From Methanomicrobia archaeon (GTDB lineage Archaea; Methanobacteriota_B; Thermococci; Methanofastidiosales; NM3): 64,000 nt of DNA. Shown here piece after piece: positions 3,127 through 40,933 of the stretch. The notes beneath the pieces were generated by a model that saw only the letters and a program-made list of their open reading frames with translations, was not told the origin of the DNA and searched no databases. The stretch spans positions 43,924-107,923 of the forward strand of contig JAUVXU010000001.1 in NCBI GenBank assembly GCA_030603445.1. Direction: 5' to 3'. Each line of letters starts with the position of its first letter. Positions within the stretch are counted from its first letter, which is position 1. The translations under genes and the position numbers were made by a program.

Positions 3127-3213
3127 GTCAGGGTGGCCCAGCCTGGTACGGCGCCGGCCTGCTAAGCCGGTTCTTGAAAGAGATCCGGGGTTCAAATCCC
3201 CGCCCTGACGCCA
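3127..3213 (+). tRNA. tRNA-Ser (anticodon GCT), class II with a long variable arm and encoded CCA
   Basis: Sequence GTCAGGGTGGCCCAGCCTGGTACGGCGCCGGCCTGCTAAGCCGGTTCTTGAAAGAGATCCGGGGTTCAAATCCCCGCCCTGACG+CCA. There is a 7-bp acceptor stem (GTCAGGG/CCCTGAC), a 5-bp anticodon stem (CCGGC/GCCGG) with loop CTGCTAA giving anticodon GCT, about 15 nt of extra arm, and a T-loop GGTTCAAATCC. Confidence 0.9.
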
Positions 3214-21672: not shown

Positions 21673-24600
21673 CTAAGGCCCGAAATCTGCAAGAGTCATC
21701 TGCGTTACCTTCTCCTTGAAAACAGATTCAAGCTCTTTTTCGATTATATCAATGCGCTGCGCTATGTATGGATCAATTTTATAATTCCTAATAATGTCCT
21801 TGCTAACCTGCAAATACTTCTCAACAGATCCTTTCGATACTGTGAGCACCAAGCGTCCACCATAACATTTGCTGCACTTTCCAGATAGGGGTATACGCCG
21901 ATATATAGTATTACAGCTAACACAGCGAAAAGTCTGCTTTGAAAAGGAGCGCAAATTCCCTATAATGTCTGGTATGAAATGTGAAACTATGACCCGTTGC
22001 GCCGTATCATCTAGATCCACAGCACGTATCTTGCGTGCAAGCTCCAGCTGCGCATCTATTTTTTCTGCCATAGATCCGAGTGTCTTGTATGCCGAGACGC
22101 TTGGGCCATCAGCTATATCACGTGTTGGGAGCGTGTAATGCAAATTGTAAAGTGCCTTTTCACTTCCTAAATGGTCAGCAACTGTTGGCAAAGAACACTT
22201 TGAGGGGTGGATGTACTGCTGCGTCTGTTCATAAAATGACACTGGATAACGCCTTGAGGTATCTATATTATATGCCTCCTTATCAATTTCCTCGGGGTCT
22301 ATTCTGGTAGTTAACACAAGAGGGGCATCCATCTTTCCTCCCCTATGCACAGGTAAGTAGTGTCGTGAAAAATTTAACAATGCATCTAACAAAAGAATGA
22401 TTGCATCCTCATCTCCATCACAATTGCGCCGCTTGGATGCGTGGAAGAATGGATGGGCATAGCCCACCTTTGCGCAAGTGTATCCTATTATGCGCCCTAA
22501 TACTCCTGCAGATGTGTGTGGAGCAAGCCCTATTACAAGATGCCCTACTAGATCTTCTCGATTTTCTGTATTGTAAAATCGTGGGAGTTTGTATACTCGC
22601 TCCAGTAAATCGTCAATAAAAGAACAGCATTTTAAGAGATAATCTGCGCCATTGTCCGAAACTATGATATCTTGCACCTTTAGCTCCACTACCTGTTCTT
22701 CACTTGAAAGTGGTTTACCTGCTTCATCAACAGTATACCCCAATTCGCGCATCTTGTTAACTGATGTACTTATCTCCTGAGGGGTAACGTGAGTAACAGG
22801 GACATCCGTGGCATCAAATCTCATGGTCCCGTCCTTGAACACATAAACATGATTATGTGCGCGTAGTATCGCCTTTTCTATGGGTTCCGGGAACTTTTCA
22901 CCAGACATCATGCCAATTACGCCCTTGACCTCTTTTGGCATTGCAATACTTAGGCCCGTGATAGCCTGATTCATCTCAGTCTTGATGTCGATGTTTTGGT
23001 AGGAATAATCGGACATATTTCTGCCGCAAGAAGGGCATTGTTCTATCTTGGTGTCAAATATCTTGCTCTTTCCCATATTGCAATGTTTATTGTTGCATGC
23101 TGCGAACGGAATTGTTTCTTCGCCGCAAGAGGGACATATAAGCTTCGGTATTATTTTCTTGCATGATGGGCACTGCCTGTTTGACACTTCAACGCGTACA
23201 TAGTTATTTTCCCTTGCCTTTATAAGTGAACGTGTCTTGCCGCCAGCATGCCCGACAGGTATCAGGCCATGTACTGGAGGAGACATTGTTCGCTCCTTTG
23301 CTTTCTCCGGGCGCCCCATTCTCCCGCCGACTGTTATAGGGCATTTTGAGCGCATCATTATTCCCAGTGTCTTGCCGATTGCTTCAATCACTATCTCGCT
23401 CTCTGACTTCCCCTCAAGGGATATTAGTGGTATAATATCATCAAATTTCTCTTTGTTGACGCATCTTCTGAAAGTCTCTGATTCTATTGTTATGCCATCT
23501 TTTGTTACAATATGCGGCAGACATATTTTTTCAAGCAGTTCCTTTTCCTTGGACAGAGGGAGCAATAGATTTTCGTTCTTTACAACGCCTTTAGAACACC
23601 AATCGATCAGTTCTCTAAGCTCCTCTAAATTAACATCTTCCCAATGGTATGTGAACCGAGGGTGTAAAGGTATCCCTAACTCCTCAGATATCTTCAACGC
23701 ATCCTTCTCACCAATATCAAATGGATTGTCTATGTATCTCTGATACTTTCTTGAGGCATCGGCTTCTTCAAGTTCCTGCACCCACCACTCCTCCACATAC
23801 CCTGAAGGCACTAGTACGTGGTTATTCTCCAAAAACTCGCCATACCCTATGAGGGCGTCCCCAAGAAACAGTATCTCGTCCACCTTGTCGCATATTTCCT
23901 GTGCCTGTTTTGAGGTCTCTACCCTAAGAACGCTGCCGTTTCTTAACTTTACGATCGGGCCCTCTATGGAGTCGACCGGGGCCGTGACGTTGGCCTTACC
24001 TGGTCTTTCGGTCTTCATCTGCGTCCCTATGGCAAGAAAAGAGTCCACTAAGTACATAGTTGCAGGATGTATGCCCCATCCTGCAAAACCAGTGTTTCGC
24101 GAACGCCCATATCTGATGCGCATCCCCTCTCTAGCCATTGGGTGTGAAAATACGGGTCTGCCGGCAATGATATCCTTTAGATATGTCCAGTTTTCAGAAA
24201 CGCCCCCAACTTCTGCCTTTTTGGACTTCTTACTAGTGCCTACATCCTTGAGCCAGTCCCATCCAACTATAGATACCTTGGACGTTATCTTTAGAACCTT
24301 AGCCGACTTTTGCAATATGCCCTCACAAAGTGCGAGCATTGCCCCTCCACGAAGGCAGTTTGTTTCAATGCGGGGCAGGTCCCTGTGTCCTGTTGCTTCA
24401 ATGTTATCGGTCTTCTCGCCAGTTATCTCAACCCCAATGTTCTCAAGAGCCATCTTCACGTCCTCGCTAGGTGGTTTATACTGCAGGTGAACGCTCCTGT
24501 TATACAACTCGACCTCTTCAATGAAACGTTCTACTTCGTCCTGAGTTACCTTATATGGATCTAGGTGTAGTTTCTGGCGCACGTAATCAGCTATTAGCAC

Positions 24601-25074
24601 CGCCATAGCAGCTGCAGTTCCGCCAGCAGAACGTATTGGGCCAGCAAAGTATATGGCAAGGTACTTTGAATTATCTGAGTTCTCCTTTATCCTTACGCTG
24701 GCTATTCCCTCAAGCGGGGCTGACACTATCCCCTCGGTAAGTATTGCTAGAGCTGTGCGTACTGCCTGCTCTGCTGCTTTTTCTATTGGAAGTGAATCAA
24801 ATTCTCCCTGGCAGATGCGGCCAGCAACCTTAAACGACACCTCCTCACGGGAGATGCCACTGTTGTCAAGTTCTCTAATTAATGCCGCAACGTCGCTTGG
24901 CCCTACAAGACTCTCCACTCGGCTTGCCATATCTTTTGCAACAGGGATCTCGACTTCAAACGATGGATCGCGCCCTTTTTTACGTGCATCTCTGGCTACT
25001 TTATAAAGGATCTCAGCCTCATGTTCTAGCAAAGAAAAATAAGATTCATACGACATTCCCATATCAGTCACCAA
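21673..25074 (-). CDS. polD2: DNA polymerase II (family D) large catalytic subunit DP2
   Basis: 1133 aa with the DP2 Cys clusters (CPSCKK…CPSCGEE, CVSCN…CSKCYGGRL). It is collinear with archaeal PolD large subunits. The size argues against an intein. Confidence 0.95.
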   Translation of the reverse strand: MVTDMGMSYESYFSLLEHEAEILYKVARDARKKGRDPSFEVEIPVAKDMASRVESLVGPSDVAALIRELDNSGISREEVSFKVAGRICQGEFDSLPIEKAAEQAVRTALAILTEGIVSAPLEGIASVRIKENSDNSKYLAIYFAGPIRSAGGTAAAMAVLIADYVRQKLHLDPYKVTQDEVERFIEEVELYNRSVHLQYKPPSEDVKMALENIGVEITGEKTDNIEATGHRDLPRIETNCLRGGAMLALCEGILQKSAKVLKITSKVSIVGWDWLKDVGTSKKSKKAEVGGVSENWTYLKDIIAGRPVFSHPMAREGMRIRYGRSRNTGFAGWGIHPATMYLVDSFLAIGTQMKTERPGKANVTAPVDSIEGPIVKLRNGSVLRVETSKQAQEICDKVDEILFLGDALIGYGEFLENNHVLVPSGYVEEWWVQELEEADASRKYQRYIDNPFDIGEKDALKISEELGIPLHPRFTYHWEDVNLEELRELIDWCSKGVVKNENLLLPLSKEKELLEKICLPHIVTKDGITIESETFRRCVNKEKFDDIIPLISLEGKSESEIVIEAIGKTLGIMMRSKCPITVGGRMGRPEKAKERTMSPPVHGLIPVGHAGGKTRSLIKARENNYVRVEVSNRQCPSCKKIIPKLICPSCGEETIPFAACNNKHCNMGKSKIFDTKIEQCPSCGRNMSDYSYQNIDIKTEMNQAITGLSIAMPKEVKGVIGMMSGEKFPEPIEKAILRAHNHVYVFKDGTMRFDATDVPVTHVTPQEISTSVNKMRELGYTVDEAGKPLSSEEQVVELKVQDIIVSDNGADYLLKCCSFIDDLLERVYKLPRFYNTENREDLVGHLVIGLAPHTSAGVLGRIIGYTCAKVGYAHPFFHASKRRNCDGDEDAIILLLDALLNFSRHYLPVHRGGKMDAPLVLTTRIDPEEIDKEAYNIDTSRRYPVSFYEQTQQYIHPSKCSLPTVADHLGSEKALYNLHYTLPTRDIADGPSVSAYKTLGSMAEKIDAQLELARKIRAVDLDDTAQRVIVSHFIPDIIGNLRSFSKQTFRCVSCNTIYRRIPLSGKCSKCYGGRLVLTVSKGSVEKYLQVSKDIIRNYKIDPYIAQRIDIIEKELESVFKEKVTQMTLADFGP

Positions 25075-26635
25075 AGTTCATTAAGACAAGGTTGTGTGTT
25101 TGTAAATTTATTATGGGGACCTTGGCCACATCAGGCGTTATGTTTCTCATCTTCTGAAAGCTCGTCTGTGACTGCCAACCACCAGAATTTATAAGAGTAA
25201 CGCCGCGATACACCCCATTTCCATTCATGTGGGTATGTCCTGTCTGAAAGATGTCTGGTGTTTCATCTATGCAAAGATAATCGCTGGTCTCAGGAATTAT
25301 CTGCGTCCCTTTCCCATATACAGGCGCAAGATGCCTCTTTCGCAGCATCTCTATCATGGGGGGGATAGGCTTGTTAATCTCGAAACCCGGGACTTGTGAA
25401 AGAAAGTCAAATATCGAGTCGCCATGGTACGCAAGACACTTTACGCCGTGTAGCGAGAAAAAAGAAGGATTAGACACCATATGTATGTTATCCATATCGT
25501 AAAGGTCGTAGGCAAACGCTTTTGGGATAGGTATTTGGGGATTCCCGCTTCTTGTGGCATCGTGATTTCCTGGCGATACTATAACTTCTATCCAATCGGG
25601 GAGATACGATAGCAGCTGTGCCGTTTTCTCATACTGTTTGTATATGTCAGTAATGCAGAGCTCCTTATCCTGATTGGGGTATATGCCAACCCCATCAACA
25701 ACGTCGCCGCAGATAACTATATACTTTATCTTTGATGCTATCTCTTGCTGTTTCTCGTTGCCTGTCTCTAGGCGCAGCCATTTGATGAAGCGCAAAAAAG
25801 ATTTTTCCATAAAATTATTGCTTCCAACATGCACATCTGAAGTGAACACCGCACCAATGTCATAAGGGGATACATTACGATTCCTGCCAAGTGCAATATC
25901 TGGGAATTCGAAGTTATTTGAAAATATTATATCTTCCCCCAACGCCCCAGAAACACCTATAACCTCATCGCACACAATGTACTTTGCACGTTCTAATAAG
26001 CGTTCCTTCTTCGTAGAAACAAGAACTTTTATCGTACCGGAAAGATCCTCAAGCTCCAACATTACGTTTCCGTTCTTAGTTGTCTTCTTACTTCGCACAA
26101 TACCGACTATCTTCACCTGCGATTTTAGTTCATTGGCCTTTGCATTTTTGATACTGACGAAATCGCGAAGTTCTCTGTGTTGCTTGAATATCTTAGATAT
26201 TCGTGTGTAACGATCCTTAAAAAGAGAGAGAAAATCCTCAAATTTTCCTTCAGAATCATCTTTTCCCGACACATCCTTAATAATCTTAATATCCTTATCT
26301 ACGTCCTTTGAAGGTATATGCTTTACTTTTATAGATTTTCTCTTTTTCTCGCTTTTGGGGACCTCGTCGGGAAGTTCTGCTCTTTGTTCCACTGATTCTT
26401 TTTGCTGTCCTGATTCTATACGTGGATAGAAATAATCCTCATAAACGTCTTTTGTAACAATAAATATATTATTTTTCTTCAAATGTGTCATGAATTCTAG
26501 AATAATATCTTCATTTGCTGCATCCTCAAGAAATTTAGCATATGCCTCTTCATTAAGAAGTACACCTTCGTCAAGGAACATGCCTGGTATGTTAATTTTA
26601 CAACTTTGTGTTGATGCCATAAGCCCTCTGCCCAC
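25064..26635 (-). CDS. polD1: DNA polymerase II (family D) small subunit DP1 (Mre11-like calcineurin phosphoesterase exonuclease)
   Basis: It has an OB-fold and a phosphoesterase domain with the metallophosphatase motifs (DVHVGS, GDVVDG, GNHD, GHTH). It overlaps dp2 by 11 nt and orc1 by 1 nt. Confidence 0.95.
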   Translation of the reverse strand: MGRGLMASTQSCKINIPGMFLDEGVLLNEEAYAKFLEDAANEDIILEFMTHLKKNNIFIVTKDVYEDYFYPRIESGQQKESVEQRAELPDEVPKSEKKRKSIKVKHIPSKDVDKDIKIIKDVSGKDDSEGKFEDFLSLFKDRYTRISKIFKQHRELRDFVSIKNAKANELKSQVKIVGIVRSKKTTKNGNVMLELEDLSGTIKVLVSTKKERLLERAKYIVCDEVIGVSGALGEDIIFSNNFEFPDIALGRNRNVSPYDIGAVFTSDVHVGSNNFMEKSFLRFIKWLRLETGNEKQQEIASKIKYIVICGDVVDGVGIYPNQDKELCITDIYKQYEKTAQLLSYLPDWIEVIVSPGNHDATRSGNPQIPIPKAFAYDLYDMDNIHMVSNPSFFSLHGVKCLAYHGDSIFDFLSQVPGFEINKPIPPMIEMLRKRHLAPVYGKGTQIIPETSDYLCIDETPDIFQTGHTHMNGNGVYRGVTLINSGGWQSQTSFQKMRNITPDVAKVPIINLQTHNLVLMNFGD

Positions 26636-27954
26636 TAAAGTTTATGCTGTATCGGGGGCACGTATGTAGCAACACGCTCTATTTTTCTGTCAAGCTCTAG
26701 AACACGTTTGGCTTGGGTGACCGGAACGCCCATACGTATTTCTTTAGTGCGGCCGTAGCGCCCTTTACTAACAACTTTTGCATTTAATATGCCTAGCATA
26801 TCTAGCTCGGATATAATATCAGATATTCTTCGCTGCGTCAATATCTCGCTTGAAGAAAGCTTACACAAGTCACGATAGACTGTATAGACCTCCCCAGTAG
26901 AAATTCCAGAAGGTTCATATTTTTCTAGTAATATACAGGAGTATAAAACAAGCTTTGATTGTATCGGCAGCGTTTTAACGACTTCTACTATTCTGTCCTG
27001 TTCTATATGGTCCTTTGCCTCACGTACATGTTTCTCGGTGATCCTTTTGCTTTTCTCGCGCTCTGCCAGTTCTCCTGCAACCCTGAAAAGATCAAGTGCA
27101 CGTCTAGCATCTCCATGCTCCTGGGCAGCATATGCAGAGCATAACGGTACTACACCAGTATCTATTAAATTAATTGACCTGCAAGACATCTTCGCACGTT
27201 GTGTGAGTATGTCCTGAAGCTGTATGGCGTCGTATGGCGGAAACACTATCTCCTCTTCCCCAAGCGAGCTTCGTACACGAGGATCCAGAAATTCTATGAA
27301 GTTGAGGTCGTTTGTTATACCGATAATGCTAACGCGCGCGTTAACAAGATCAGAGTTTACGCGTGTAAGGTTATATAATACTTCATCGCTCCCCTTTCGA
27401 AGCAATCTATCGATCTCATCGAGAACTATTATGACCAGGCGCTTTTCGCGATCCAGTGTTGAAAAGAACGTGTCATACACCTTATCCGTGGGCCACCCTG
27501 TTAAGGGTATGGACTGCCCAAAATATTCACCCAACTTCGCCAAAAGACGGTATTGTGTATCAACTATTTCACAGTTCATATAAATAAACCAGACTGGATA
27601 ATCATTATCAGTAACAGCAGAGTAGTCGGGAACTATATTATTGTCTCGAAAAGTCTTTGAAAAGAATTTCCCGCCGATCTTTTTGACAAGTGCTTTGCCA
27701 ATATGTTTAACAACAGCTGTTTTTCCAGTACCTGTCTTTCCATACACAAATATATTAGAAGGCGTTTCTCCCTTGAAAACGGATACTAGTATAGCTGCTA
27801 CCTCTTCTATTTGACGCTGTCTATGAGGTAGTTGATCAGGCGTATAAGAATGACGTAAAACCTCTTTATTAATAAAAATGCGTTCATTGCTTAAAAGTTC
27901 ATCAAATAAACAGTCTAGACTCTTTTGGTTGTTCATCATTGCACCTGGTTCCAC
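26635..27954 (-). CDS. orc1: Orc1/Cdc6 replication initiator
   Basis: AAA+ fold with Walker A YGKTGTGKTA, Walker B IIVLDEID, and a C-terminal winged helix. It is adjacent to the ORB-containing origin. Confidence 0.95.
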   Translation of the reverse strand: MEPGAMMNNQKSLDCLFDELLSNERIFINKEVLRHSYTPDQLPHRQRQIEEVAAILVSVFKGETPSNIFVYGKTGTGKTAVVKHIGKALVKKIGGKFFSKTFRDNNIVPDYSAVTDNDYPVWFIYMNCEIVDTQYRLLAKLGEYFGQSIPLTGWPTDKVYDTFFSTLDREKRLVIIVLDEIDRLLRKGSDEVLYNLTRVNSDLVNARVSIIGITNDLNFIEFLDPRVRSSLGEEEIVFPPYDAIQLQDILTQRAKMSCRSINLIDTGVVPLCSAYAAQEHGDARRALDLFRVAGELAEREKSKRITEKHVREAKDHIEQDRIVEVVKTLPIQSKLVLYSCILLEKYEPSGISTGEVYTVYRDLCKLSSSEILTQRRISDIISELDMLGILNAKVVSKGRYGRTKEIRMGVPVTQAKRVLELDRKIERVATYVPPIQHKL

Positions 27955-28292
27955 TAGAAACGGTCCTTTTTATATATTTCCTCTACCCCTTTGTTTCCAA
28001 TGGAAAATTATAATAGAACACCATATTATAAGATATTTTAAGATATTATTAAATGAGGCAGTCCTTCATTTCCAGTGGAACATTTTTTACGAAATTTGGT
28101 TGATTTGCGCTTCAGAAAATGTAATTGCGAAAACTATTTATAGATAGAATGAAATAAGCTTTTAGAACCTTTTTTTATTACAATAATAAAGCATTAAAAA
28201 ATCTTTTTATTATTCTACTCCACTGGAAACGAAGGGGTAGGGGTCAAGCATAATTTAAAAAGGTTTATTAACTAAAATATATTATAAATCGT
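27955..28292. other. Chromosomal replication origin (oriC): inverted ORB elements flanking an AT-rich duplex-unwinding element
   Basis: There is a mini-ORB GTTTCCAATGGAAAA (27993–28007). ORB at 28058–28082 reads, on the minus strand, GTTCCACTGGAAATGAAGGAC. ORB at 28218–28245 reads CTCCACTGGAAACGAAGGGGTAGGGGTC on the plus strand. Between them lies about 130 bp of more than 75% A+T. This is the canonical archaeal origin architecture directly upstream of orc1/cdc6. Confidence 0.8.
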
Positions 28293-28943
28293 ATGGACAA
28301 TTTGTCGGAGAAAAAATCCCTCAATCATTTTCTTCTTGTTCCACACGGCATTAAGTTATATTCTGGGAAGATAGGTTGTTCGAATATAGATGCATACGAT
28401 GCTACGTCTATCATATTTAAAAATATTTTAAAATGGATTTTTGTGGATTATAATATAAAGGAATTCTCATTTATTGGGTTAACATTAAATGCGATGCAGA
28501 CTAGAAGTGCGGAAGAATTAACACCAATTATGGAAGTCGAGTCCACAACATATGAAGATCCTGATTTAGTATCGTTTCTAATGGAGAATCAAATTAAGGT
28601 AACGTTCAAAGGAAACTTCTCTAAACTTCCAAAATATTATAGACGTGCCATGAAGAATATTACAAAGCTCACGGAAAATCACATGGCCCACAAGCTCAAT
28701 ATTTTAGTTGGATATGGCCTTGGCAAAAAAAGTCTTTTTTCAAAGATAAAAAAGAAGCTTTTTAGGGATATTTTTACAAGCGACCCTCCCGACCTAATGG
28801 TAAGCACTGCAGGTAGAGATTTTAGTATTATTTTGGAGAAAATTCCCAAGACTACAAAGACGCTAGTAGTTGATACTATTTTTCCAGAGCTAACGCAGCA
28901 GAATATAAAATCTTTTGTTGATTATTATTTTGCTACACCCTAA
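28293..28943 (+). CDS. Cis-prenyltransferase (UPPS)-fold protein lacking the catalytic DGNRRWA motif (possible non-catalytic NgBR/Nus1-like subunit)
   Basis: 216 aa, collinear with UPPS. HFLLVPHGIKLYSGK replaces H.AIIMDGNGRWA. FIGLTLNAMQTRSAEELTPIMEV corresponds to LTLYAFSSENWNRPAQEVSALMEL. The C-terminal DPPDLMVSTAGRDFSIIL corresponds to PVDLVIRTGGEHRISNFL. This is homology by eye only. Confidence 0.45.
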   Translation: MDNLSEKKSLNHFLLVPHGIKLYSGKIGCSNIDAYDATSIIFKNILKWIFVDYNIKEFSFIGLTLNAMQTRSAEELTPIMEVESTTYEDPDLVSFLMENQIKVTFKGNFSKLPKYYRRAMKNITKLTENHMAHKLNILVGYGLGKKSLFSKIKKKLFRDIFTSDPPDLMVSTAGRDFSIILEKIPKTTKTLVVDTIFPELTQQNIKSFVDYYFATP

Positions 28944-29028
28944 GCACGCAGGATTTATGCAGGGGCTTTTCGAGTTAACGCTTGCTAAATTAAGTAGTAG
29001 CCATACGCTGAAATAGGAAGTCGTTCAT

Positions 29029-30396
29029 CTACTTAGTTGGGAGTAGTTCATTATTTACTATTTCTTTTATTTTTTTAAGATACTTCTTATATTCGTAATG
29101 TAACGTTTGTGATTTAAAATCAAAGTAAGGCTCTTCAAGTGAGATGCTTTGCTCAAAATAATACCGCATACGGGGAGCACGAGATTTCCTGCTTTCGTGG
29201 TATGAGATGGACCATACGTTGTATCGTATCTTTGAGTTAATAAAAGGGGTGTTTAGCAGTCCCATTATTCTTTCTTTATATAGGGGATGGCATCTTATGT
29301 GTACACACCAGTGATATTTACCGTAATCATTTTCATTTAGAGATTTGACGAAGGCGCCAGCTTTTAATGTGCGGGCGCATGCACCAACACTTGCGGCAAT
29401 CTTTTTCGTGTCATCGTAGTTTTTTCCTGTGAGCATTAGGAAGAAATGGGAGCATTTGTCCTTTGGCATTGGATAAACTGTGTAGAATTTGCGTACTATT
29501 CCTGCGTTTTTTAGTTTCTCATAAGAATATCGCCATGCATTATATCCAAATATGTAAGGGTTATTCCCTTCCTTGTCTATTATTTGTGCATCGTGCTTCA
29601 TTAGTCTAGATAAGTCTCCATTATAATATCCTGATTGTAGGTACATTATAAGGCGCGTATCTAGCAGCGATAGACGCAGGCGTTTTTCTTTAGTTGCCTC
29701 GAAAGCGGGTTTGAATGTTTTGTCAAAGTTTATTTTATCGACAACTAATGGCGTCTCACAAATGTTGTTAGGATTTTTCGTAAGATGGTATGGATTGTAT
29801 ATATCCAGTAATCCTTCTAGTTCAAATGCGGTGTAATAAAACAAGACCCCTTCGTCTTTTAGATAGTCCATAATTCGAATTATGGCTTTGGAGTCTGTGT
29901 TGTATACGGATACTAGCATCTCGTTGAATACGCCCTCTTCCAAAGGATAGAAGAAGCTCCAGCTATCAATAGTCTGCAGCAGCGAGATTAGGTAGTCATA
30001 AGTGTACTTCTTTGGGAACATTATGAAAAAGATTAACCTATTAACAGGATTCGTTGAGATCTTCGAAAGATCTATCCAATAGTTCGCTCCGGAAAGATAA
30101 CCTCTCTTCTTTAGTATGGTATTTTTCACGGTTGATATATAGTTGTAGTATTTAAATCCCACAAGTTTGGCTATTTCCCTGTCAGTTAGATCCGGCTGAT
30201 GTCCTAAGATATCTAGAATAGCCATTTGTGAATGGCTTAGCCTTTCATCTTTTTCTAACATTGTTATAGAATTTTCTAGAGATATCATATATATAATGCG
30301 CTCCCTTGTGGTATAGATGGAGGTGATAAGTTGCGTGGATTTCCGCCAGGTTTTGGGCCAGGATTTACTGCACCATGCATTGATGGAGACCCCCAC
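29029..30396 (-). CDS. Hypothetical 420–455-aa protein with an N-terminal winged-helix (MarR/wHTH-like) domain; last gene of the RPA operon
   Basis: A wHTH is present (LSHSQMAILDILGHQPDLTDREIAKLVGF). The remaining ~350 aa are Tyr/Lys-rich with no recognisable family. The alternative start MISLENS… is at 30288. Confidence 0.5.
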   Translation of the reverse strand: MGVSINAWCSKSWPKTWRKSTQLITSIYTTRERIIYMISLENSITMLEKDERLSHSQMAILDILGHQPDLTDREIAKLVGFKYYNYISTVKNTILKKRGYLSGANYWIDLSKISTNPVNRLIFFIMFPKKYTYDYLISLLQTIDSWSFFYPLEEGVFNEMLVSVYNTDSKAIIRIMDYLKDEGVLFYYTAFELEGLLDIYNPYHLTKNPNNICETPLVVDKINFDKTFKPAFEATKEKRLRLSLLDTRLIMYLQSGYYNGDLSRLMKHDAQIIDKEGNNPYIFGYNAWRYSYEKLKNAGIVRKFYTVYPMPKDKCSHFFLMLTGKNYDDTKKIAASVGACARTLKAGAFVKSLNENDYGKYHWCVHIRCHPLYKERIMGLLNTPFINSKIRYNVWSISYHESRKSRAPRMRYYFEQSISLEEPYFDFKSQTLHYEYKKYLKKIKEIVNNELLPTK

Positions 30397-31181
30397 TAGG
30401 CTAACATATAGTGGCCTATGGCTGGTTCAAATATATCTCCAAGTGATAACAGTGATTTAAGTGCTTCCTCAATTTCTGCAGTAGTGAACTTAGAATCTAG
30501 TTCGGCTATAAGTACATCTAGCTCAACGCCTTTCTCATCGCTTTGGAGACTCACTATTTTTTCTAATATTTGTTTTTTTACTATTTCAAGATTTTGTACA
30601 TTAACAGATTCGTCCCTTTCTTTTTCAAGGAGATAATCAAGTTCGTCAATCCCCTCTAATATCTCCGGGGCTATGTTTTCTTTACTTGCAAGTTCTAGGG
30701 CTTTTCTCATCGCTCCGGTAGTCTCCATCAACTCACGTGCACGAAAAGCTGTTTTCTTGAAATGCAGCACACGTGCTACTGTTTCAGCACGCGCCAAAAG
30801 AAGGAATTCCGGTGATACAGAAGTTACTGCTTCTATAGTGAGCTGCTTGTTGTCCTGCCATTCCCTAGGTTTTGCAATTAGTTGAACGAGCATGCCTCGC
30901 TCTAAAGGTTTTATAAGCTGGGCGCGCTCCCTAAACGCAGATCCCCACATCGTGGCAGTAGTATCATCAAGCAGTATTCTTGCATAAGAGTCGTCGTCAC
31001 TAAAATATGGCCCAGAAACTATTGTTGCAACGATTTTGGCACGGTGGATTTTTTCCCCATTTTTAGTAAGAATATAGTTTGGGTCAAAATCTCCCTCTTT
31101 TTCTACATAGTAGCCTGTTTGTAATTCTGATAGGTATACTCGTTTTGCTGGAAGTCGTTTCTTCATATACGTTCCTCCCAT
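30396..31181 (-). CDS. RPA32-like protein (OB-fold plus C-terminal winged helix)
   Basis: The OB core is RAKIVATIVSGPYF…ARILLDDTTATMWGSAF. A C-terminal acidic/helical wH-like region (…AEIEEALKSLLSLGDIFEP) follows. It overlaps the upstream gene by 19 nt. Confidence 0.6.
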   Translation of the reverse strand: MGGTYMKKRLPAKRVYLSELQTGYYVEKEGDFDPNYILTKNGEKIHRAKIVATIVSGPYFSDDDSYARILLDDTTATMWGSAFRERAQLIKPLERGMLVQLIAKPREWQDNKQLTIEAVTSVSPEFLLLARAETVARVLHFKKTAFRARELMETTGAMRKALELASKENIAPEILEGIDELDYLLEKERDESVNVQNLEIVKKQILEKIVSLQSDEKGVELDVLIAELDSKFTTAEIEEALKSLLSLGDIFEPAIGHYMLA

Positions 31182-31537
31182 TTTTTGATCTTGTGGTATA
31201 TATCCATATCCACAGAGGAGAAGTCTTGAATAACTTCTGCGTTTATGCCTTTTCCCATCTCAAAGGGCTTTCCGATGACCCGTATGACAGTTCCTATTTC
31301 ATAGAGTTTGTCTCCAAATATTGTTATTTGCCCTGTGCCATCGTCTATAATCATGGTGTAATCATTCGGGTTAGACCTAATTACAGTACCTATAACGGTA
31401 ACATAATCGTCTTCCTCTTCTATCTCCACTATTTCTTTTTCAACAGCAGGATTTCTACTCACCGTAATCACACTCCAGAATAGATAGGACGTTTTGTGTC
31501 TCTTTGTTAAATTCCAGGGGCCTAATATCCTGAACAT
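31163..31537 (-). CDS. Small OB-fold protein (RPA14-like or RPA-associated protein, COG3390-like)
   Basis: 124 aa; VTVIGTVIRSNPNDYTMIIDDGTGQITIFG is a classic OB-fold ssDNA-binding core. It overlaps the upstream RPA gene. Confidence 0.5.
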   Translation of the reverse strand: MFRILGPWNLTKRHKTSYLFWSVITVSRNPAVEKEIVEIEEEDDYVTVIGTVIRSNPNDYTMIIDDGTGQITIFGDKLYEIGTVIRVIGKPFEMGKGINAEVIQDFSSVDMDIYHKIKKWEERI

Positions 31538-32498
31538 TGATATTTATCCCAGTATACTCATTTTCTGAGATAGACCCTATAAGCACTATCTCCTTTCCAA
31601 GAATATCTGGTTTTTTCTCTAGGATGTACTCAAGGCCAGCGCTCTTTCCTGTGTATCCTGCATCAAGGTAGCCTTGTAGATCACGTGCTATGTTATCTGG
31701 GGACTCTCCGAGGAGTTCTGATGCGCTGTCGCTAAACAAGACGGCCCGGATGTGGTTTGTTCCATCATCTATTCCTATCTCAACTACCATGGCTTTCTTC
31801 GGAACAATGCGTATCTTGCAGTTATCACAAAAGAAGGAATCTTTTGATTTAATGGCCCGTTTATGACATGTAGGACAAGCATCATAGATAAGAAGACGGT
31901 ATATATTGGATATAGTCGCCCTTATCTCTATCGAATGTTCTCCTGGGGATATGTCTATTAGTTTTTTTCTCACTACATTTTGAGGGGATTTGTATGTAAG
32001 TTCTGGGAAATTGCTTTCATCCTCTACTATGATCCTGCCTTTGTAACCGAGGCGTAGTTGTGGGCCTGACGGCCCTTTTACAGATATGCAATTTATTAGG
32101 CGTATCACATTGCCATCATGAATTTTATTATATATGTCTAATTCTCTGTCCCATAAAGTCAAATATATCTTTCCTGTTGGGTCTCCAAGAAGGAATGATT
32201 GAAGCTGTTTTTTCTTCTTGTCTTCCTTGATGAATTCTTTTTTATCGAAAACTCGTAGCACACGAGTAATTAAATGTAGATTCATAAGCCCATCGGTTAT
32301 TTTATCGATTGTGAGCTCTGGCGATTCAACTGTTTCTGTTATGCCATGTTCTGCAGCAATTAGGGAGATTATTCCCTCATCAGTTATGTGGGACCCAATA
32401 GACTCCTTTTTTTCATTTATCATACGTTCTATGGCGTCTTCTCCGAATCCTTTTTCTTTAAGTAATACGACGAGTTCATCTATTCCCATCTTTTTCAC
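31455..32498 (-). CDS. rpa: Replication protein A, short form (N-terminal domain, one OB-fold, C4 zinc finger)
   Basis: The N-terminus (EGIISLIAAEHGI) resembles that of the second RPA at 38162. The OB fold is LTLWDRE…, and there is a Zn finger CPTCHKR…CDNCK. Confidence 0.7.
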   Translation of the reverse strand: MKKMGIDELVVLLKEKGFGEDAIERMINEKKESIGSHITDEGIISLIAAEHGITETVESPELTIDKITDGLMNLHLITRVLRVFDKKEFIKEDKKKKQLQSFLLGDPTGKIYLTLWDRELDIYNKIHDGNVIRLINCISVKGPSGPQLRLGYKGRIIVEDESNFPELTYKSPQNVVRKKLIDISPGEHSIEIRATISNIYRLLIYDACPTCHKRAIKSKDSFFCDNCKIRIVPKKAMVVEIGIDDGTNHIRAVLFSDSASELLGESPDNIARDLQGYLDAGYTGKSAGLEYILEKKPDILGKEIVLIGSISENEYTGININVQDIRPLEFNKETQNVLSILECDYGE

Positions 32499-32590
32499 CT
32501 TAACACGTTATATCAATGATATTTTAGATGCTTTTTCCCTTATATAAATATATAGCAAATCTTTAAATGTAACAATGCAAAAAATATAGT

Positions 32591-33871
32591 GTGAATTGTT
32601 ATTTAATTCGTTATGCGGAGATTGGAATAAAATCCTCCCAGATACGAAATAAGTGGTTACACCAATTAAGGCAGAATATAGAAAGATGCCTTTTTTGGAA
32701 CGCCGTATCATTTGGCCGCGTTGTTATAGTTCAAGGTAGGCTTATAGTATATTCTAATGACAAAAAGGCGGCCGACGCTATGCACCATGTTATGGGGATA
32801 TCCTCAATATCTCCTGCCACAGAAATTGATTTGGATATGGGGGAGCTAAAAAACGTTGCATTAAGGATTTATCACGAAAGGAATCCAAAGACATTTAGAA
32901 TATCCACTCAGCGCGTTACAAAAGATTACCAACTTACCTCCCAAGAGATCAATGAACAGATCGGCGAGGCCGTTTATGAGGCCGGCGGGACAGTAAGCCT
33001 AACAAAGCATGAGCTTAACATATCTTTTGAAATTATCAATGACAAAGCATACGTCTTTACCGAAGTCAACAGAGGAGTCGGTGGCCTTCCACTCGGTGTG
33101 CAAAATGTTGGCTGTGCTGTCGTAAAAACACTTCGCGATTTAGTGGCCTGTTGGTTATTTATGAGGCGGGGATGCCCTGTTGAGGTCGTAGCATATAACA
33201 CTAATCACACGAGCATTTACATTGACATATTGCAGTCATTTGCCTGTAGCGGCCTGAGAATACAACTTATCAATAGCACAGATGATCTAAAGGAAGTTCT
33301 GCCTTCGTATCTTAAGCGTGATATCGAGGTAGTTGTCAGTGGCACACAAATCGATGCCCCGGAAGGCATGGTAAACTTATGCCCATGTGAACTTTTCACT
33401 ACCATTCAGTTAAATGACACGCTTCGTATGGCCGGAATAGTTCTTCCACACCCTATCGAAAATCATATGCTCTCTGCAGGAGGGATCGTCTACAAAGACA
33501 ATAAAATTTTTCTTTTTAGGCGAAAGGATGAAAGGACATGGCTGCTCCCAAAAGGTGGGGCGGATAACAAGGAGCATCTTAGAGAGGCGGCATTGCGTGA
33601 AATATGTGAGGAAACTGGTCTGTGCAATGTAGATATTGGTGATATGGTTGGAAAGGCGCAGTACTCATTTGTTAGGGAAGGCATAAAATACACCAAAGAT
33701 GTTTACTATTATCTGTGCACTACTTGCGACGAGCTAGTTACTTTAGAACCACTCTTTGACGATCATGCTTTCTTAAGTCCGAATGATGCGGAAAAACGTG
33801 CCACATTCGTGAACGACAAAAGAATGATAAGGTGTTCGCAACGGCTCCGCGACGCACGCAGACGTTCATAA
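32591..33871 (+). CDS. ThiI-like ferredoxin/THUMP protein with a degenerate PP-loop domain fused to a C-terminal Nudix hydrolase
   Basis: The N-terminus (CYLIRYAEIGIKS…) is THUMP/ThiI-like. The segment GCAVVKTLRDLVACWLFMRRGCPVEVV aligns to the ThiI PP-loop region, but SGGxDS is replaced by KTLRDL. The C-terminus has a Nudix box GGADNKEHLREAALREICEETGL. Confidence 0.7.
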   Translation: MNCYLIRYAEIGIKSSQIRNKWLHQLRQNIERCLFWNAVSFGRVVIVQGRLIVYSNDKKAADAMHHVMGISSISPATEIDLDMGELKNVALRIYHERNPKTFRISTQRVTKDYQLTSQEINEQIGEAVYEAGGTVSLTKHELNISFEIINDKAYVFTEVNRGVGGLPLGVQNVGCAVVKTLRDLVACWLFMRRGCPVEVVAYNTNHTSIYIDILQSFACSGLRIQLINSTDDLKEVLPSYLKRDIEVVVSGTQIDAPEGMVNLCPCELFTTIQLNDTLRMAGIVLPHPIENHMLSAGGIVYKDNKIFLFRRKDERTWLLPKGGADNKEHLREAALREICEETGLCNVDIGDMVGKAQYSFVREGIKYTKDVYYYLCTTCDELVTLEPLFDDHAFLSPNDAEKRATFVNDKRMIRCSQRLRDARRRS

Positions 33872-34202
33872 TGCATGCACAATGAGAAAAGCTTTTTAAA
33901 CAAACGGAAATTATCTTCTTTATTAGCGTGATTTATATGAAAAAAGAAAAGTGGAAAGAAATCATTGAGCAGCTAGAAAATGGAGAGATAAGCGAAGAGA
34001 GTGCACACGAGGAGATAATGCGAAATTACGGCATACCCGATCAGGAGCGCATACGCCAGTGCAATTAGGGAATTCTTTCACTCTTTTTTATTATAGATTT
34101 TTTTGATTAACCTACTTCTTTCAGTTAGGTTTGCATGCTTTGATTTTCAGGGTGGTTTTTGACAGCAATCTTTTAATATATAGGTATTAACATTTAAGTA
34201 TT

Positions 34203-35594
34203 ATGAAACGCCAATCTAATGCTATTGTTGCATCTTTTTTTATCCTTGCTATTATTGGATTATCAGTATTCTCTGGTTGTATAAATGGCGATATAAACAT
34301 CACGTCCGAGCCAAAAGTTGTGGATTCGGATGGCGACGGCATTCAGGATGTCTACGATAAGTGCCCATTTATCTATGGCCCCATATCAAACGATGGTTGT
34401 CCTGTTGAGGACTTGGATACCCCAGACTTGGATACCCCACCTCCAACTACCACAGTTGCACCCACCACACAGCCACCAACGACCACTTCTCCCCCAACAT
34501 CGCCACCGGCATCAACCCTTCCACCAACAACAGCTCCTCCAACACCCCTCCCTTCCCTAAAAAATTCTGATTGGCCGATGAGGGGATATGATATTGAAGC
34601 TACGGGATACACTCAAAGTTCTGGCATAGTAGTTCAGGCAACACAATGGACTTATCCTCTACTAAACTATGTTTCCTCCGTTCCTTCAGTAGGGTATGGG
34701 AACGTGTATGTGGGGGACGTGGACGGGAATTTTTACTGCATGGACCAGACAACCGGGGGGCTTAAGTGGACATACAAGGCGCGAGATCAGATTATTTCCA
34801 CACCAGCACTTTACAAGGGAAAAGTGTACTTTGGTTCTTACGATAGATATGTTTATTGTTTGGATGCCGTTACTGGCGATCTTGTCTGGAAATACAGGAC
34901 GGGGGATGCTGTGTATTCCTCTGCATTCGTGTACAGGGATAAGGCATATATAGGGTCATGGGACGGAAAGATGTATTGCTTTGATGCAGGTACGGGCGAA
35001 GTTATATGGGATTTTGACACAGGTGCCCTTATACTATCCTCACCTTCCTATTCCAATGGCAGCGTTGTGTTTGGAAACGATAATGGAAATATGTACTGCC
35101 TTAATTATCTTGACGGATCCCTTATATGGGCAACGAATATACCCCATTGCACGATATATGCTACCCCCGCCATTTATGAAGAAAGGATATTTATCACAAT
35201 GTCATCGCGCGACGTTATTTGTCTGGATGAAAAAACAGGAAATCAATTGTGGACATATACTACAAAAGATATCATTCATACCTCTGTGGCAGTTCATGAC
35301 GGCATGGTCTATGCAACATCATTCGATTCTTTTATATACTGTCTAGATGCTTATTCTGGCACACTGTTGTGGCTGCATAAGACATCAGATACCGCTTCCA
35401 CCCCAACAATTTCCAATGGGGTTGTGTATTTGTTGGAAAGTGACGGTCTTGTTTGCTTGAATGCAACAACAGGGATGGCGGAGTCCAGGTATCCTGCGTC
35501 CGGATTCAAGGGGTTATCAGCGATACTAGCAGATTCCCTTCTTTACTTCACTTCGGGAAATACGTTGTACTGCCTTGGGTATATCACAAATTAG
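34203..35594 (+). CDS. Secreted PQQ-repeat beta-propeller protein with a Thr/Pro-rich linker
   Basis: It has a signal peptide and a TTTVAPTTQPPTTTSPPTSPP linker. Repeated G-x-V/LYxGSxDGxxYCLDAxTGxxxW blades (eight or more) are present. Confidence 0.8.
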   Translation: MKRQSNAIVASFFILAIIGLSVFSGCINGDINITSEPKVVDSDGDGIQDVYDKCPFIYGPISNDGCPVEDLDTPDLDTPPPTTTVAPTTQPPTTTSPPTSPPASTLPPTTAPPTPLPSLKNSDWPMRGYDIEATGYTQSSGIVVQATQWTYPLLNYVSSVPSVGYGNVYVGDVDGNFYCMDQTTGGLKWTYKARDQIISTPALYKGKVYFGSYDRYVYCLDAVTGDLVWKYRTGDAVYSSAFVYRDKAYIGSWDGKMYCFDAGTGEVIWDFDTGALILSSPSYSNGSVVFGNDNGNMYCLNYLDGSLIWATNIPHCTIYATPAIYEERIFITMSSRDVICLDEKTGNQLWTYTTKDIIHTSVAVHDGMVYATSFDSFIYCLDAYSGTLLWLHKTSDTASTPTISNGVVYLLESDGLVCLNATTGMAESRYPASGFKGLSAILADSLLYFTSGNTLYCLGYITN

Positions 35595-35803
35595 GTATAT
35601 TTTTGCGTCATGTTTTCAGTGACCCATATTTTAATAGTCTTATTTATGTATGTGATTTGATTATAGAATTATCCATTCAGTCATCCTCTTTATTGAAAAG
35701 AATATTAATCATAATTCTCTATATATTAACATATTTAAAGTCTATTTTTGTATCAAGTTTCTAAAGACAAAAGTGTTTAATACACTATAGTCTTAGTGGA
35801 TGC

Positions 35804-36280
35804 ATGGAGTCGGTAATCGTATCTATTGAAAAGGAAGCCGGTGTGGAGTGTATCATCGGCCAGGGGAATTTTTCAATATTCACTGTGGATAATTTAGCAA
35901 CAACCCTAAAGACGTCTGTTCCATCCATTTCATTTGGGCTCTCGATGAACGAGGCTAAACCCAAGCTGGTGCGCGTGGAAGGAAATGATAAAGTGCTCAA
36001 GGCAGCAAGCGCCAAGGCTTGCCTGGAAATTGGTGCCGGACACGTATTTGTCATAATGATGAAGGGGACATTTCCAATAAACGTTCTAAATGCCATTAAA
36101 GCGCATCCTGCAGTATGTACAATTTACGGTGCATCGGAAAATCCATTGGAAGTTGTAGTTGGGATAACTGAGTTAGGGAGATGCGTACTAGGCATCGTTG
36201 ATGGCTTTGCTGCCACTTCTATCGAGAGCGAGAAACAAAAGAAGGAACGAAAGGATTTGCTGGCAATGATTGGTTATTAA
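35804..36280 (+). CDS. Small conserved archaeal protein, possibly adenosine-specific-kinase-like (COG1839 / PF04008)
   Basis: 158 aa. The family call is a weak recollection based on size and the HVFVIMMKGTFPINVLNAIK region. Confidence 0.3.
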   Translation: MESVIVSIEKEAGVECIIGQGNFSIFTVDNLATTLKTSVPSISFGLSMNEAKPKLVRVEGNDKVLKAASAKACLEIGAGHVFVIMMKGTFPINVLNAIKAHPAVCTIYGASENPLEVVVGITELGRCVLGIVDGFAATSIESEKQKKERKDLLAMIGY

Positions 36281-36360
36281 TAAATATTGTTCACATTCCT
36301 CAAGGAAAGCTTTATCAAAAGGTTTATATTTTTTTGAAAATAACATTTTAAGGTGTTTTA

Positions 36361-38157
36361 ATGAAGTTACTTATGATGGGCAACGAGGCCATTGGACGCG
36401 GTGCAATAGAAGCTGGCGCAAGCGTTGTTTGTGCCTATCCAGGAACACCCTCTTCGGAGATACCTGCGTATGTGGCGCATCATGCTCACAATCACGGGAT
36501 GTATGTTGAGTATTCCACCAACGAGAAGGTAGCACTTGAGGTAGCTATAGGTACTAGCTGGTCTGGGTTGAGGGCGATGGTGACCATGAAGCATGTAGGT
36601 GTGAACGTAGCTTCTGATGCACTTTTGTCTTTGACGTATACAGGCGTTGAAGGCGGTCTTGTTCTGGTGTCAGCTGACGATCCTACCTGTCACTCATCAC
36701 AAAACGAGCAGGACAGCCGATATTATGCATTGTTGGCAAACATCCCTGCTATGGAACCATCATCACCACAGGAAGCATTGGAGATGACCAAGGTTGCGTT
36801 TGATATATCAGAGGATATAGGGCTCCCAATAATGATGCGCCCAACAACTCGTTTGTGTCATTGCAGGGCGGATGTTGCCATAGGTGTGATACGTGAGAAG
36901 AACGATGGACCAGATTTCAAGAGGGATATTAGTCACAAGGTAACGATACCCTCACACGCACGCCTCTTACATCCCGAACTTCTAGAAAAGATAGAGAAGA
37001 CGAGGGAACTATTTGAAAATAGTCAGTTCAATTGGATCGAAGGAAAAGGAAAGCTTGGCGTCATAGGTTCTGGCATTGCATACACCTACGTTGTCGAGGC
37101 TGCTGCTTTACTCAAAGCTGAAGTGTCAATTCTAAAACTTGGAACTCTGCACCCCCTTCCTAAAGGTGTATTACTTGACTTCTTACGCGACAAGGACATA
37201 GTCGTAGTTGTAGAGGAGATGGAACCAATAGTTGAGCAATATGTGAAAGAGATTGCTTACGACAATGGGTTAACATTAAAAATAAGAGGAAAAGACGTTA
37301 TACCAAAGGTAGGAGAACTGAATACCAAAATTGTCCGAAATGGACTTTCTGAAGCATTTTCGTACGCATATGAAGAAACTATGGCATGTGGAGTACCAGA
37401 AAATACCTTATTACCACCACGCCCGCCCACACTGTGTCCAGGATGCCCCCACAGGGCCACGTTTTACTGTATCAACAAGATGGCAAAAAAGTCTATAAAG
37501 ACCAGCGATATAGGGTGTTATACTCTAGGTGTAGTCCCGCCATTATCTGCTGTTGACACGACATTATGTATGGGAGCAAGCATAGGTATCGCTTGTGGTC
37601 TTTCCGCTGCAGGAAATGAAAAGATAATAGCCACGATAGGCGACTCTACATTTTTCCATACGGGAATGCCAGGATTAGTGAATGCAGTATATAATAATCA
37701 TAATATACTAATGGTCATCCTTGATAACAGGACAACTGCCATGACAGGCCATCAACCCCATCCAGGAACAGGCAAAACTGCCATGGGTGAGCGCGTGCCA
37801 ATAATAGATATAAGGAAGATATGCGAAGCGGTCGGTGCATATACCCAAGAGGTAGACCCGTTCGACCTCAAAGACACCATAGAATGCATGAAGCGCGCAT
37901 TTGAGCATGAAGGCGCATCTGTGATAATTTCGAAGCGTCCATGTACTTTGCTATTAGGCCCTATCGAACGAGAGGCAGAGAATTTTGAGGTGGACAAAGA
38001 TACGTGCAATGGATGCAAACTATGCATAAAACAGCTTGGCTGTCCTGCGCTTTTGTTTGAAGAAGAGAGTAAAAAGGCGGAGATAGACAATCTATTGTGC
38101 ACGAACTGTGGCGTTTGTGCACAAGTGTGTCCGTTCGATGCTATAAGGAGTAAGTGA
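36361..38157 (+). CDS. iorA: Indolepyruvate:ferredoxin oxidoreductase alpha subunit (TPP-dependent, with a C-terminal 2×[4Fe-4S] domain)
   Basis: 598 aa with a TPP-binding region (GDSTFFHTGMPGLVNAVYNN) and C-terminal CNGCKLCIKQLGCPA / CTNCGVCAQVCP ferredoxin motifs. No iorB is adjacent. Confidence 0.85.
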   Translation: MKLLMMGNEAIGRGAIEAGASVVCAYPGTPSSEIPAYVAHHAHNHGMYVEYSTNEKVALEVAIGTSWSGLRAMVTMKHVGVNVASDALLSLTYTGVEGGLVLVSADDPTCHSSQNEQDSRYYALLANIPAMEPSSPQEALEMTKVAFDISEDIGLPIMMRPTTRLCHCRADVAIGVIREKNDGPDFKRDISHKVTIPSHARLLHPELLEKIEKTRELFENSQFNWIEGKGKLGVIGSGIAYTYVVEAAALLKAEVSILKLGTLHPLPKGVLLDFLRDKDIVVVVEEMEPIVEQYVKEIAYDNGLTLKIRGKDVIPKVGELNTKIVRNGLSEAFSYAYEETMACGVPENTLLPPRPPTLCPGCPHRATFYCINKMAKKSIKTSDIGCYTLGVVPPLSAVDTTLCMGASIGIACGLSAAGNEKIIATIGDSTFFHTGMPGLVNAVYNNHNILMVILDNRTTAMTGHQPHPGTGKTAMGERVPIIDIRKICEAVGAYTQEVDPFDLKDTIECMKRAFEHEGASVIISKRPCTLLLGPIEREAENFEVDKDTCNGCKLCIKQLGCPALLFEEESKKAEIDNLLCTNCGVCAQVCPFDAIRSK

Positions 38158-38161
38158 TATT

Positions 38162-39838: not shown

Positions 39839-40781
39839 TATTATAAAAGAGATTGAGGACCTGCCTGGAGTAGGACCTATAACAGCCGAAAAGTTACGGG
39901 GCGGAGGATTTTCAACTTTGGAGGCTATAGCAGTGTCATCTCCCCTTGAGCTTCATGAGATAGCCGATATAACGGAAGCCACTGCAGCAAAAGTGATTTT
40001 GGCAGCACGAAATGCTGCAGATGTAGGGGGATTTATCTCTGGTGAGGAATTATATGAGCGAAGACAGACCATAGGCCGGATAACCTCTGGCAGCAGTCGC
40101 CTCGATGAGCTTATTGGCGGGGGTTTTGAGACACAGGCCATAATAGAGGCTTTTGGTGAGTTTGGAAGTGGCAAATCTCAAATTGCGCACCAGCTTATAG
40201 CGGCCGTACAGCTGCCAATTGAGAAGGGTGGGCTTGATTCGGGCGCTGTTTATATAGATACTGAAAACACATTTCGCCCAGAGCGCACAATGTCTATAGC
40301 AAAACATTTGGGCCAGGACCCACATGAGGCGTTACGAAATATTCATGTTGCCCGAGCCTTCAATTCAAGCCACCAGATACTCCTTGCAGAGCGTGCTGAG
40401 GAAATCTTCGAGAAAGGAGACGCGCGGCTACTTGTAGTTGACTCTCTAACAGCGATGTTTAGAGCAGAGTATATTGGGCGGGGCACGCTTGCCGAAAGGC
40501 AACAAAAATTAGGGATGCATCTACGCCAACTACACAAGATTGCAAATGTATATGATGCATGCGTTTATGTTACAAACCAGGTTTCAGCAAAACCAGATGC
40601 TTTCTTTGGGGATCCAACACGCCCTATTGGCGGCCATGTTCTTGGACATTCTGCAACACTTAGGCTTTATTTAAGAAAAAGTAAGCAAGGGCAGCGCATA
40701 GCAAGACTTGTAGACTCCCCGTCACTACCCGAGGGTGAGGCACTCTTCATGCTTACCGAAAACGGCATTGAGGATAAGTAG
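39816..40781 (+). CDS. radA: DNA repair and recombination protein RadA
   Basis: An N-terminal HhH region ([12 protein letters not shown]), Walker [10 protein letters not shown], and Walker [10 protein letters not shown] are present. The true start may be MSDII at 39831. Confidence 0.95.
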
Positions 40782-40933
40782 AGCCCGGAAAATTGAGGGA
40801 ATATATTTGGCACTGATATTATCGGTGCAAAGAACCATGGGCTTAAGGTAGTACTTACCATGACAGGAGTAGCAAGGCCACAAGACTTTGTAAGTAGTCA
40901 AGTCTTTGAATAATATATTCTTGGGCGATCCAT

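Follow-up and report, generated by a model that had tools for sequence, protein, structure and literature searches.

What does a protein do when it keeps the cis-prenyltransferase (cis-PT) fold and has lost the residues by which this fold is known to work? The question is raised by a gene beside a predicted replication origin in a window of 64,000 nt of archaeal DNA (the whole stretch that was analysed; coordinates below are window positions). The gene encodes a degenerate cis-PT-fold protein, a member of what is named here the PHGI family (Table 1). Judging from the pattern of its conservation, we consider it probable that the protein is a dead cis-PT pseudoenzyme acting as a non-catalytic binding or regulatory module, with much lower confidence in any given ligand.

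Fold retained, catalytic and RXG residues lost

We considered as a member of the PF01255 superfamily any protein with a significant profile match across most of its length. In this case PF01255 (Prenyltransf) matched with an E value of 1.5e-10 (41.5 bits; cut-off 27), the match covering profile positions 18-211 of 219, as expected from an earlier note on this DNA, which had called the protein collinear with undecaprenyl-diphosphate synthase (UPPS). Matches to the NCBIfam UPPS equivalogs were far under their cut-offs. A profile built on the family matched UPPS 3ugs at E 2.4e-9, and the AlphaFold2 model gave a confident prediction of the UPPS alpha/beta fold, in which strands beta-E and beta-F are kept together with a portion of helix alpha-5. 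In the alignments, the segment from strand D to strand E (helices alpha-5 and alpha-6) is ~25-40 residues shorter than in homodimeric cis-PTs. Core and tunnel-lining columns, chosen by reference to the E. coli UPPS structure, remain hydrophobic and are more aromatic in the family (F42, F58, F60, Y87, F105). The PHGI family thus keeps the whole architecture and the hydrophobic core of the cis-PT fold.

To place the active-site residues, 16 family members were aligned with the 135 nearest representatives from a library of 1.84 billion proteins and with E. coli UPPS as a ruler; the hallmark residues of the ruler were recovered at the expected positions and the numbering is self-consistent. D26, present in 99% of the canonical relatives, is His in all 16 members and His in none of the relatives, which agrees with the earlier reading of PHGIKLYSG in place of DGNRRWA. 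Also invariant in the family are the replacements of N28 (usual residue in 77% of the relatives) by Ile and of N74 (98%) by Ala. R30 (97%) gives way to variable residues, as do R39 and R200, S71 (97%) to Thr or Ser, and R194 (100%) to Ser, Glu or Asn; S202 (99%) and E213 (87%) are lost. The claim that further catalytic residues are altered is therefore borne out. Apart from the N28 column, in which Ile occurs in 2%, the replacing residues at D26, N28, R30, S71, N74, R194, S202 and E213 were found in 0 of the 135 canonical sequences. In the numbering of the PHGI protein itself, H18, G19, I20 and Y23 are invariant among the 16 members, and so is A67, in an LTLNAM segment standing where FSxENW would be. 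The segment of the isopentenyl diphosphate (IPP) site (R194, R200, S202, E213) is variable or deleted, and partly gone in the second of the two subgroups described below. The positions that are retained are structural: H20 (as H12), G27, R29 (as R/K21), R77 (as R71), E81 (as E75), Y145 (as Y141), T195 and P222.

The C-terminal RXG motif of homodimeric cis-PTs is missing as well: [RKN]xG is absent from the final 14 residues of each family member, and the C-terminus falls ~8 residues short of the motif position. A read-through into a downstream RXG was considered and discarded, as the in-frame sequence past the stop (ARRIYAGAFRVNAC*) holds no RXG and the orthologues end otherwise. When 332 nearest relatives were screened for six hallmarks (D26, R30, N74, R194, R200 and RXG), all six were absent in the 18 PHGI family members only. 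None of the features of an active UPPS-type enzyme (the D26/R30 P-loop, S71/N74 and the IPP site) is present, so that the protein, having lost the Mg-binding Asp, the diphosphate-binding Arg residues, the Ser/Asn pair and the IPP site, cannot carry out the condensation of IPP with an allylic diphosphate. Judged by these residues, it is unable to bind Mg-diphosphate substrates in the way of the family or to deprotonate IPP, and has no IPP site.

In homomeric enzymes and in accessory subunits the C-terminal RXG enters the active site of the neighbouring subunit, and the catalytic subunits of heteromeric cis-PTs are without it; its mutation abolishes activity in NgBR, POC1, EcUPPS and the archaeal MaUPPS-B, and it is essential in NgBR, Nus1, POC1 and MaUPPS-B (bioRxiv 10.1101/139675; PMC12998183; PMC13586052). 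Against this background the PHGI family differs from each known class. From homodimeric archaeal/bacterial UPPS (tritrans,polycis-undecaprenyl-diphosphate synthase, PF01255) it differs by the lack of D26, N28, R30, R39, S71, N74, R194, R200, S202, E213 and RXG, and from the catalytic subunits of heteromers (DHDDS, Rer2, MA3723, MM_1083, Af1219) by the lack of the DGNRR, S/N and IPP-site Arg that all of them keep. Rv3378c tuberculosinol synthase, the lavandulyl/cyclolavandulyl diphosphate synthases and MM_0014 bind and ionise prenyl diphosphates, whereas the PHGI protein is without the P-loop Asp, R30, R39, R194 and R200. With NgBR, Nus1, Lew1, POC1, MaUPPS-B (MA4402), MM_0618 and Af0707 it shares the condition of a cis-PT-fold paralogue without catalytic residues, and it has the equivalent of H100 of NgBR as H12; it has no RXG to donate, and neither its sequence nor its structure places it nearer to these accessory subunits. 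It is accordingly unable, unlike NgBR/Nus1-type subunits, to complete the active site of a partner. The earlier note had proposed a non-catalytic subunit of NgBR/Nus1 type: the dead cis-PT fold stands, the NgBR type does not.

The search for relatives gave the same picture. The best matches outside the family, among 1.84 billion representatives, were complete archaeal cis-PTs, DPANN-type ones among them, and the enzymes nearest to the family are archaeal, short, complete and active-looking, some of them from metagenome-assembled genomes (MAGs) of Diapherotrites/Iainarchaeota type; IIDGNRR and a tail with [KN]xG are found in the closest clade (P0018, P0167-P0170). The family profile found UPPS (2e-9) and DHDDS (2e-3), whereas chains of NgBR or Nus1 were not matched at E<=10; of the comparison with UPPS and NgBR suggested earlier, it is UPPS that was returned. 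Since the nearest relatives are complete cis-PTs and NgBR/Nus1 were not matched, the degeneration is independent of the NgBR lineage, and by sequence the PHGI family is best described as an independently evolved cis-PT-fold pseudoenzyme, derived from short homodimer-type archaeal enzymes (IPDGNRRYA ... RRFGK).

We also looked for an active cis-PT in the same organisms. A six-frame hidden Markov model scan of the 64-kb window and of the loci fetched matched only the PHGI family and the catalytic comparison locus P0018, in accordance with the claim that the window holds no intact UPPS gene. No cis-PT besides the family itself was found within 10 kb of the PHGI genes at the Methanofastidiosa-type, subgroup-2 and 13 metagenome loci, and no canonical cis-PT labelled Methanofastidiosa was found in homologue searches with the family, with P0018 or with the P0018 clade profile. 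The contexts of P0018, P0167, P0169 and P0271 have no genes in common with the Methanofastidiosa loci and come from assemblies different from the family-bearing ones; a tetranucleotide comparison of the two sets of loci is dominated by GC content and uninformative. No published mention of such a protein was found in the literature, and no cis-PT annotation in the supplements of a Methanofastidiosa genome paper.

As a separate observation on these comparison loci, the cis-PTs P0169, P0271 and P0167, of the nearest catalytic clade, lie in a conserved cluster (L014 3430-6708, L022 2872-5822 and L018 6001-7890), in which the cis-PT gene is accompanied by those for a KaiC-like ATPase, for one V4R-domain protein or two, and for a small protein of unknown kind. 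Both P0018 and P0167 adjoin a UbiA prenyltransferase, and P0167 also a geranylgeranyl-reductase-like flavoprotein. The cluster may be an uncharacterised archaeal isoprenoid-lipid gene cluster.

Conservation and the role it suggests

The family is rare, with 15 clusters among 5.8 billion proteins, 6 of 185,579 species genomes and 13 loci in 241 million metagenome records; for the species-genome and metagenome scans the F109-M120 block was used as a diagnostic peptide pattern. Close homologues carry the NCBI label 'undecaprenyl diphosphate synthase family protein' and come from Candidatus Methanofastidiosa/Methanofastidiosia MAGs. Two subgroups can be distinguished. Subgroup 1 (213-217 aa, 60-70% identity to the window protein) is found in Methanofastidiosa-type MAGs, and subgroup 2 (197-203 aa, 35-40% identity) in MAGs whose titles read Thermococci, Methanomicrobia or Methanobacteriota archaeon. 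Both have in common PHGI, DAYD, EVE, FSKLPKYYxRAM and the Ala at N74, and 41 columns are invariant; invariance across the two subgroups extends to 10 of the 12 positions of the F109-M120 block, and an eleventh is >=90% conserved. One of the loci, L008 (DAINBB010000002.1), is titled 'Halobacteria archaeon'; its gene and tetranucleotide content match the Methanofastidiosa locus L001 with a correlation of 1.00, and the title is probably a taxonomic mislabel.

The open reading frame (ORF) is intact, at 197-217 aa, in all members (~30 independent sequences), and within subgroups the proportion of nonsynonymous differences (pN) is 0.14-0.26 versus a saturated synonymous one (pS) of 0.73-0.98, giving a pN/pS of about 0.15-0.3. 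Because 41 columns are invariant and pN is low while pS is saturated, the sequences indicate a working gene under purifying selection, not a relic. The adjoining Orc1/Cdc6 has 82-84% identity between the window and the Methanofastidiosa-type loci L025-L031 (one 131-residue fragment has 73%); by comparison with the 60-70% of the PHGI protein, the dead paralogue evolves much faster, yet under constraint.

Where the invariant residues lie is what favours a binding or regulatory role. At the former allylic pocket and tunnel mouth, the replacements H18, I20, D33, Y35, D36, S39, F42, A67, E81, E83 and Y87 are invariant across both subgroups; the former IPP site, by contrast, is variable and partly deleted. 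Newly fixed residues at the allylic pocket next to a decayed IPP site favour a role in binding or regulation over simple decay, as decay would not fix new residues. According to this reading, the remodelled pocket and the invariant FSKLPKYYxRAM surface (beta-C/alpha-4) would hold a ligand or a partner protein, and the protein would have a regulatory or carrier role tied to isoprenoid or glycan-carrier metabolism.

Several points weigh against such a role. Binding of a ligand or partner is read from the conservation pattern, and the clustering of the invariant residues at the pocket is putative; the same data are equally compatible with new catalysis in the His/Asp-rich pocket and with a heterodimer formed with the active enzyme of the genome. 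The AlphaFold2 model was built on an alignment of 15 sequences, and its predicted local distance difference test score is 62-64 at residues 141-160, which correspond to the dimer helix. The mapping of active site and tunnel uses the numbering of the E. coli ruler and presumes the sequence of the ruler to be right. Finally, the neighbours of the gene offer no functional clue in either subgroup.

The heterodimer just mentioned would make the PHGI protein the subunit of a heteromeric cis-PT, dimerising with the catalytic cis-PT of the organism either as an NgBR-like activator or as a dominant-negative regulator. Heteromers that pair a catalytic paralogue with a degenerate one have been proven for Methanosarcina and Archaeoglobus (PMC12998183; PMC13586052; bioRxiv 10.1101/139675), proteins of this fold work as dimers, and beta-E, beta-F and part of alpha-5 are kept in the model. 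A His important in NgBR (H100) and MaUPPS-B (H29) is retained as the invariant H12, but 79% of the catalytic relatives likewise have an equivalent His. We consider this explanation unlikely: every member is without the RXG, the sole feature through which an accessory subunit is known to work; in structure and sequence the protein is much nearer to the catalytic enzymes than to NgBR/Nus1; the region of the dimer helix has become shorter, shows poor conservation between subgroups and is modelled with low confidence; and no partner was found within 10 kb at the Methanofastidiosa-type or subgroup-2 loci examined. With no RXG to donate, the site of a partner would be left incomplete, and a heterodimer would more plausibly inhibit than activate the active enzyme.

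Equally doubtful, in our opinion, is a third functional class that neither catalyses nor donates an RXG, in which a pocket of inverted polarity (His18, Asp33, Asp36, Glu81 and Glu83 replacing Asp/Arg/Asn) would serve new chemistry or the binding of a new ligand or metal, and in which Orc1 bound at an origin recognition box (ORB) would gate expression in Methanofastidiosales, so that a function in lipids or glycan carriers would be coupled to the initiation of replication. In a more extreme version of this reading, the PHGI protein would be the only cis-PT homologue in these reduced genomes.

New chemistry is the substance of a further explanation, a repurposed enzyme with a new active site (His18, Asp33, Asp36, Glu81, Glu83 and Arg71), comparable to Rv3378c. 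All known repurposed members of the cis-PT fold act on prenyl diphosphates, and none is known to lack the P-loop Asp for Mg, whereas here that Asp and the diphosphate-binding R30, R39, R194 and R200 are gone. There is also no operon partner that points to a pathway, and we judge such an enzyme rather improbable.

The origin neighbourhood and the surrounding genes

The gene lies beside a predicted oriC, as had been claimed. Between orc1/cdc6 and the PHGI gene there is a spacer of 338 bp (27955-28292; 27% GC) with ORBs, of which the pair 27980-28018 / 28205-28243 has inverted 39-nt arms, 79% complementary, with cores TTTCCAATGGAAA and CTCCACTGGAAAC, then GAAGGGGTAGGGG. This pair brackets an AT-rich stretch that would unwind. 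We considered as oriC inverted ORBs around an AT-rich stretch adjoining orc1/cdc6; precisely this arrangement is found, and oriC is thus predicted here from sequence. The ORB layout is kept in L001, L007 and L009, three further Methanofastidiosa-type loci of quite different GC content.

A conserved element, TTTAAAAAG(G/C)TTTATTAA at 28254-28271, occurs also in genomes of 40-56% GC; its equivalent is TTTAAAAAGCTTTATTAA or CTAAAAAGCTTTATTAA in L001 (within about 9928-10000) and L009, and a variant, TTTAATAAGCTTTATTAA, in L007. It is a putative BRE/TATA promoter (TFB-recognition element and TATA box), and its distance from the ATG suggests a leaderless mRNA. Since the nearest ORB is so close to the element, Orc1 bound there would abut the upstream edge of the promoter, and expression of the PHGI gene may be tied to origin occupancy.

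Table 1. Features of the PHGI locus and of its surroundings in the window.
Feature	Position	Strand	Remarks
PHGI family gene	28293..28943	+	ORF; 216-aa degenerate cis-PT-fold protein
P-loop / Mg-diphosphate motif remnant P17-H18-G19-I20-K21-L22-Y23-S24	28341..28364	+	aligns to PDGNRRYA of relatives
Region II remnant L63-T64-L65-N66-A67-M68-Q69-T70-R71	28479..28505	+	no catalytic base region (S71->T, N74->A); R77 retained (R71)
Most conserved family-specific block F109-S-K-L-P-K-Y-Y-R-R-A-M120	28617..28652	+	beta-C/alpha-4 region
C-terminal helix and stop	28881..28943	+	ends ...FPELTQQNIKSFVDYYFATP, no RXG; canonical relatives run on to ...R(R/N)FGK
orc1/cdc6 initiator gene	26635..27954	-	divergent from PHGI gene; Pfam Cdc6_C 1e-29, Cdc6_lid 7e-24
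orc1-proximal ORB	27980..28018	+	CCCCTTTGTTTCCAATGGAAA...; inverted partner of 28205-28243
Second orc1-side ORB	28063..28081	+	TTTCCAGTGGAAC core; further copy, from repeat analysis
Gene-nearest ORB	28205..28243	+	...CTCCACTGGAAACGAAGGGGTAGGGG; inverted partner of 27980-28018
Putative archaeal BRE/TATA	28254..28271	+	TTTAAAAAGGTTTATTAA; 10 nt past ORB, 21 nt ahead of ATG
PolD DP2	21673-25074	-	
PolD DP1	25064-26635	-	
Conserved unknown-function protein	29029-30396	-	weak winged-helix hint, residues 55-80
Three RPA-like genes (RPA trimer)	30396-32498	-	
Second multi-OB RPA-like protein	38162-39838	+	
RadA	39816-40781	+	
RNase HII	40934-41581	+	
tRNA-Ser(GCT)	3127-3213	+	sole RNA gene detected in the 64-kb window (ARAGORN, Rfam)

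The place of the gene raises the possibility of a replication-linked factor, that is, of a gene functionally part of the origin and replication island and acting at or with oriC. It lies inside an island of PolD, Orc1, RPA, RadA and RNase HII genes and is the first gene beyond the ORB, with its putative promoter, in every Methanofastidiosa-type locus. In subgroup 1, orc1 is directly upstream at every locus with enough flank, and the gene is always between the origin and orc1 on one side and the conserved unknown gene that ends the RPA operon on the other. Subgroup 2, however, has all the family-specific residues and sits between alaS and purE, nowhere near orc1; the position at oriC is therefore the gene order of one lineage and not a feature of the family. 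The adjacency looks like lineage-specific synteny that at most places the promoter under the influence of Orc1 binding. The protein is, moreover, without a nucleic-acid-binding domain and its isoelectric point ranges from 5.1 to 9.2 among members, and no cis-PT-fold protein is known in replication, so that such a factor is highly improbable. Nucleic-acid binding through the basic helix 145-160 was discarded in view of the same range and of the lack of conservation of the helix in subgroup 2. That the gene is a decaying pseudogene or a mis-called ORF without function, as the loss of all catalytic residues might suggest, is practically untenable, being refuted already by the conservation pattern across such divergent subgroups, and opposed by the intact frame of constant length, the low pN/pS and the confident fold prediction.

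The replication/recombination island extends for ~20 kb round the origin (21673-41581) and has interleaved genes for a THUMP-NUDIX protein, a beta-propeller protein, an adenosine-specific-kinase-family protein and a TPP/ferredoxin oxidoreductase. For the unknown-function protein downstream of the PHGI gene, Pfam gave no match above threshold. The stop of the RPA32-like gene is overlapped by its ORF, which is therefore probably the last of the RPA operon; an orthologue in L001 (377 aa, 50% identical) has the equivalent place and begins at residue 70, for which reason the listed 455-aa ORF is probably over-extended.

Meaning for the cis-PT family

The current picture of cis-PTs is a two-way split in which a protein has the catalytic motifs, the RXG or both. 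The PHGI family, as read from its sequences, has neither the catalytic set nor the RXG and is outside this two-class scheme. As neither motif set is present and the proteins are yet conserved under purifying selection, the family is a natural example of a fold retained for a purpose different from chain elongation and from the completion of an active site.

The scope is narrow, since a handful of uncultured lineages is concerned. Within it, metabolic reconstructions of Methanofastidiosa should not take the label 'undecaprenyl diphosphate synthase family protein' to mean an enzyme, and identifying the ligand of the PHGI protein could lead to a new step, of regulation or of carriage, in the archaeal dolichol or glycan-carrier metabolism of an uncultured methanogen class.
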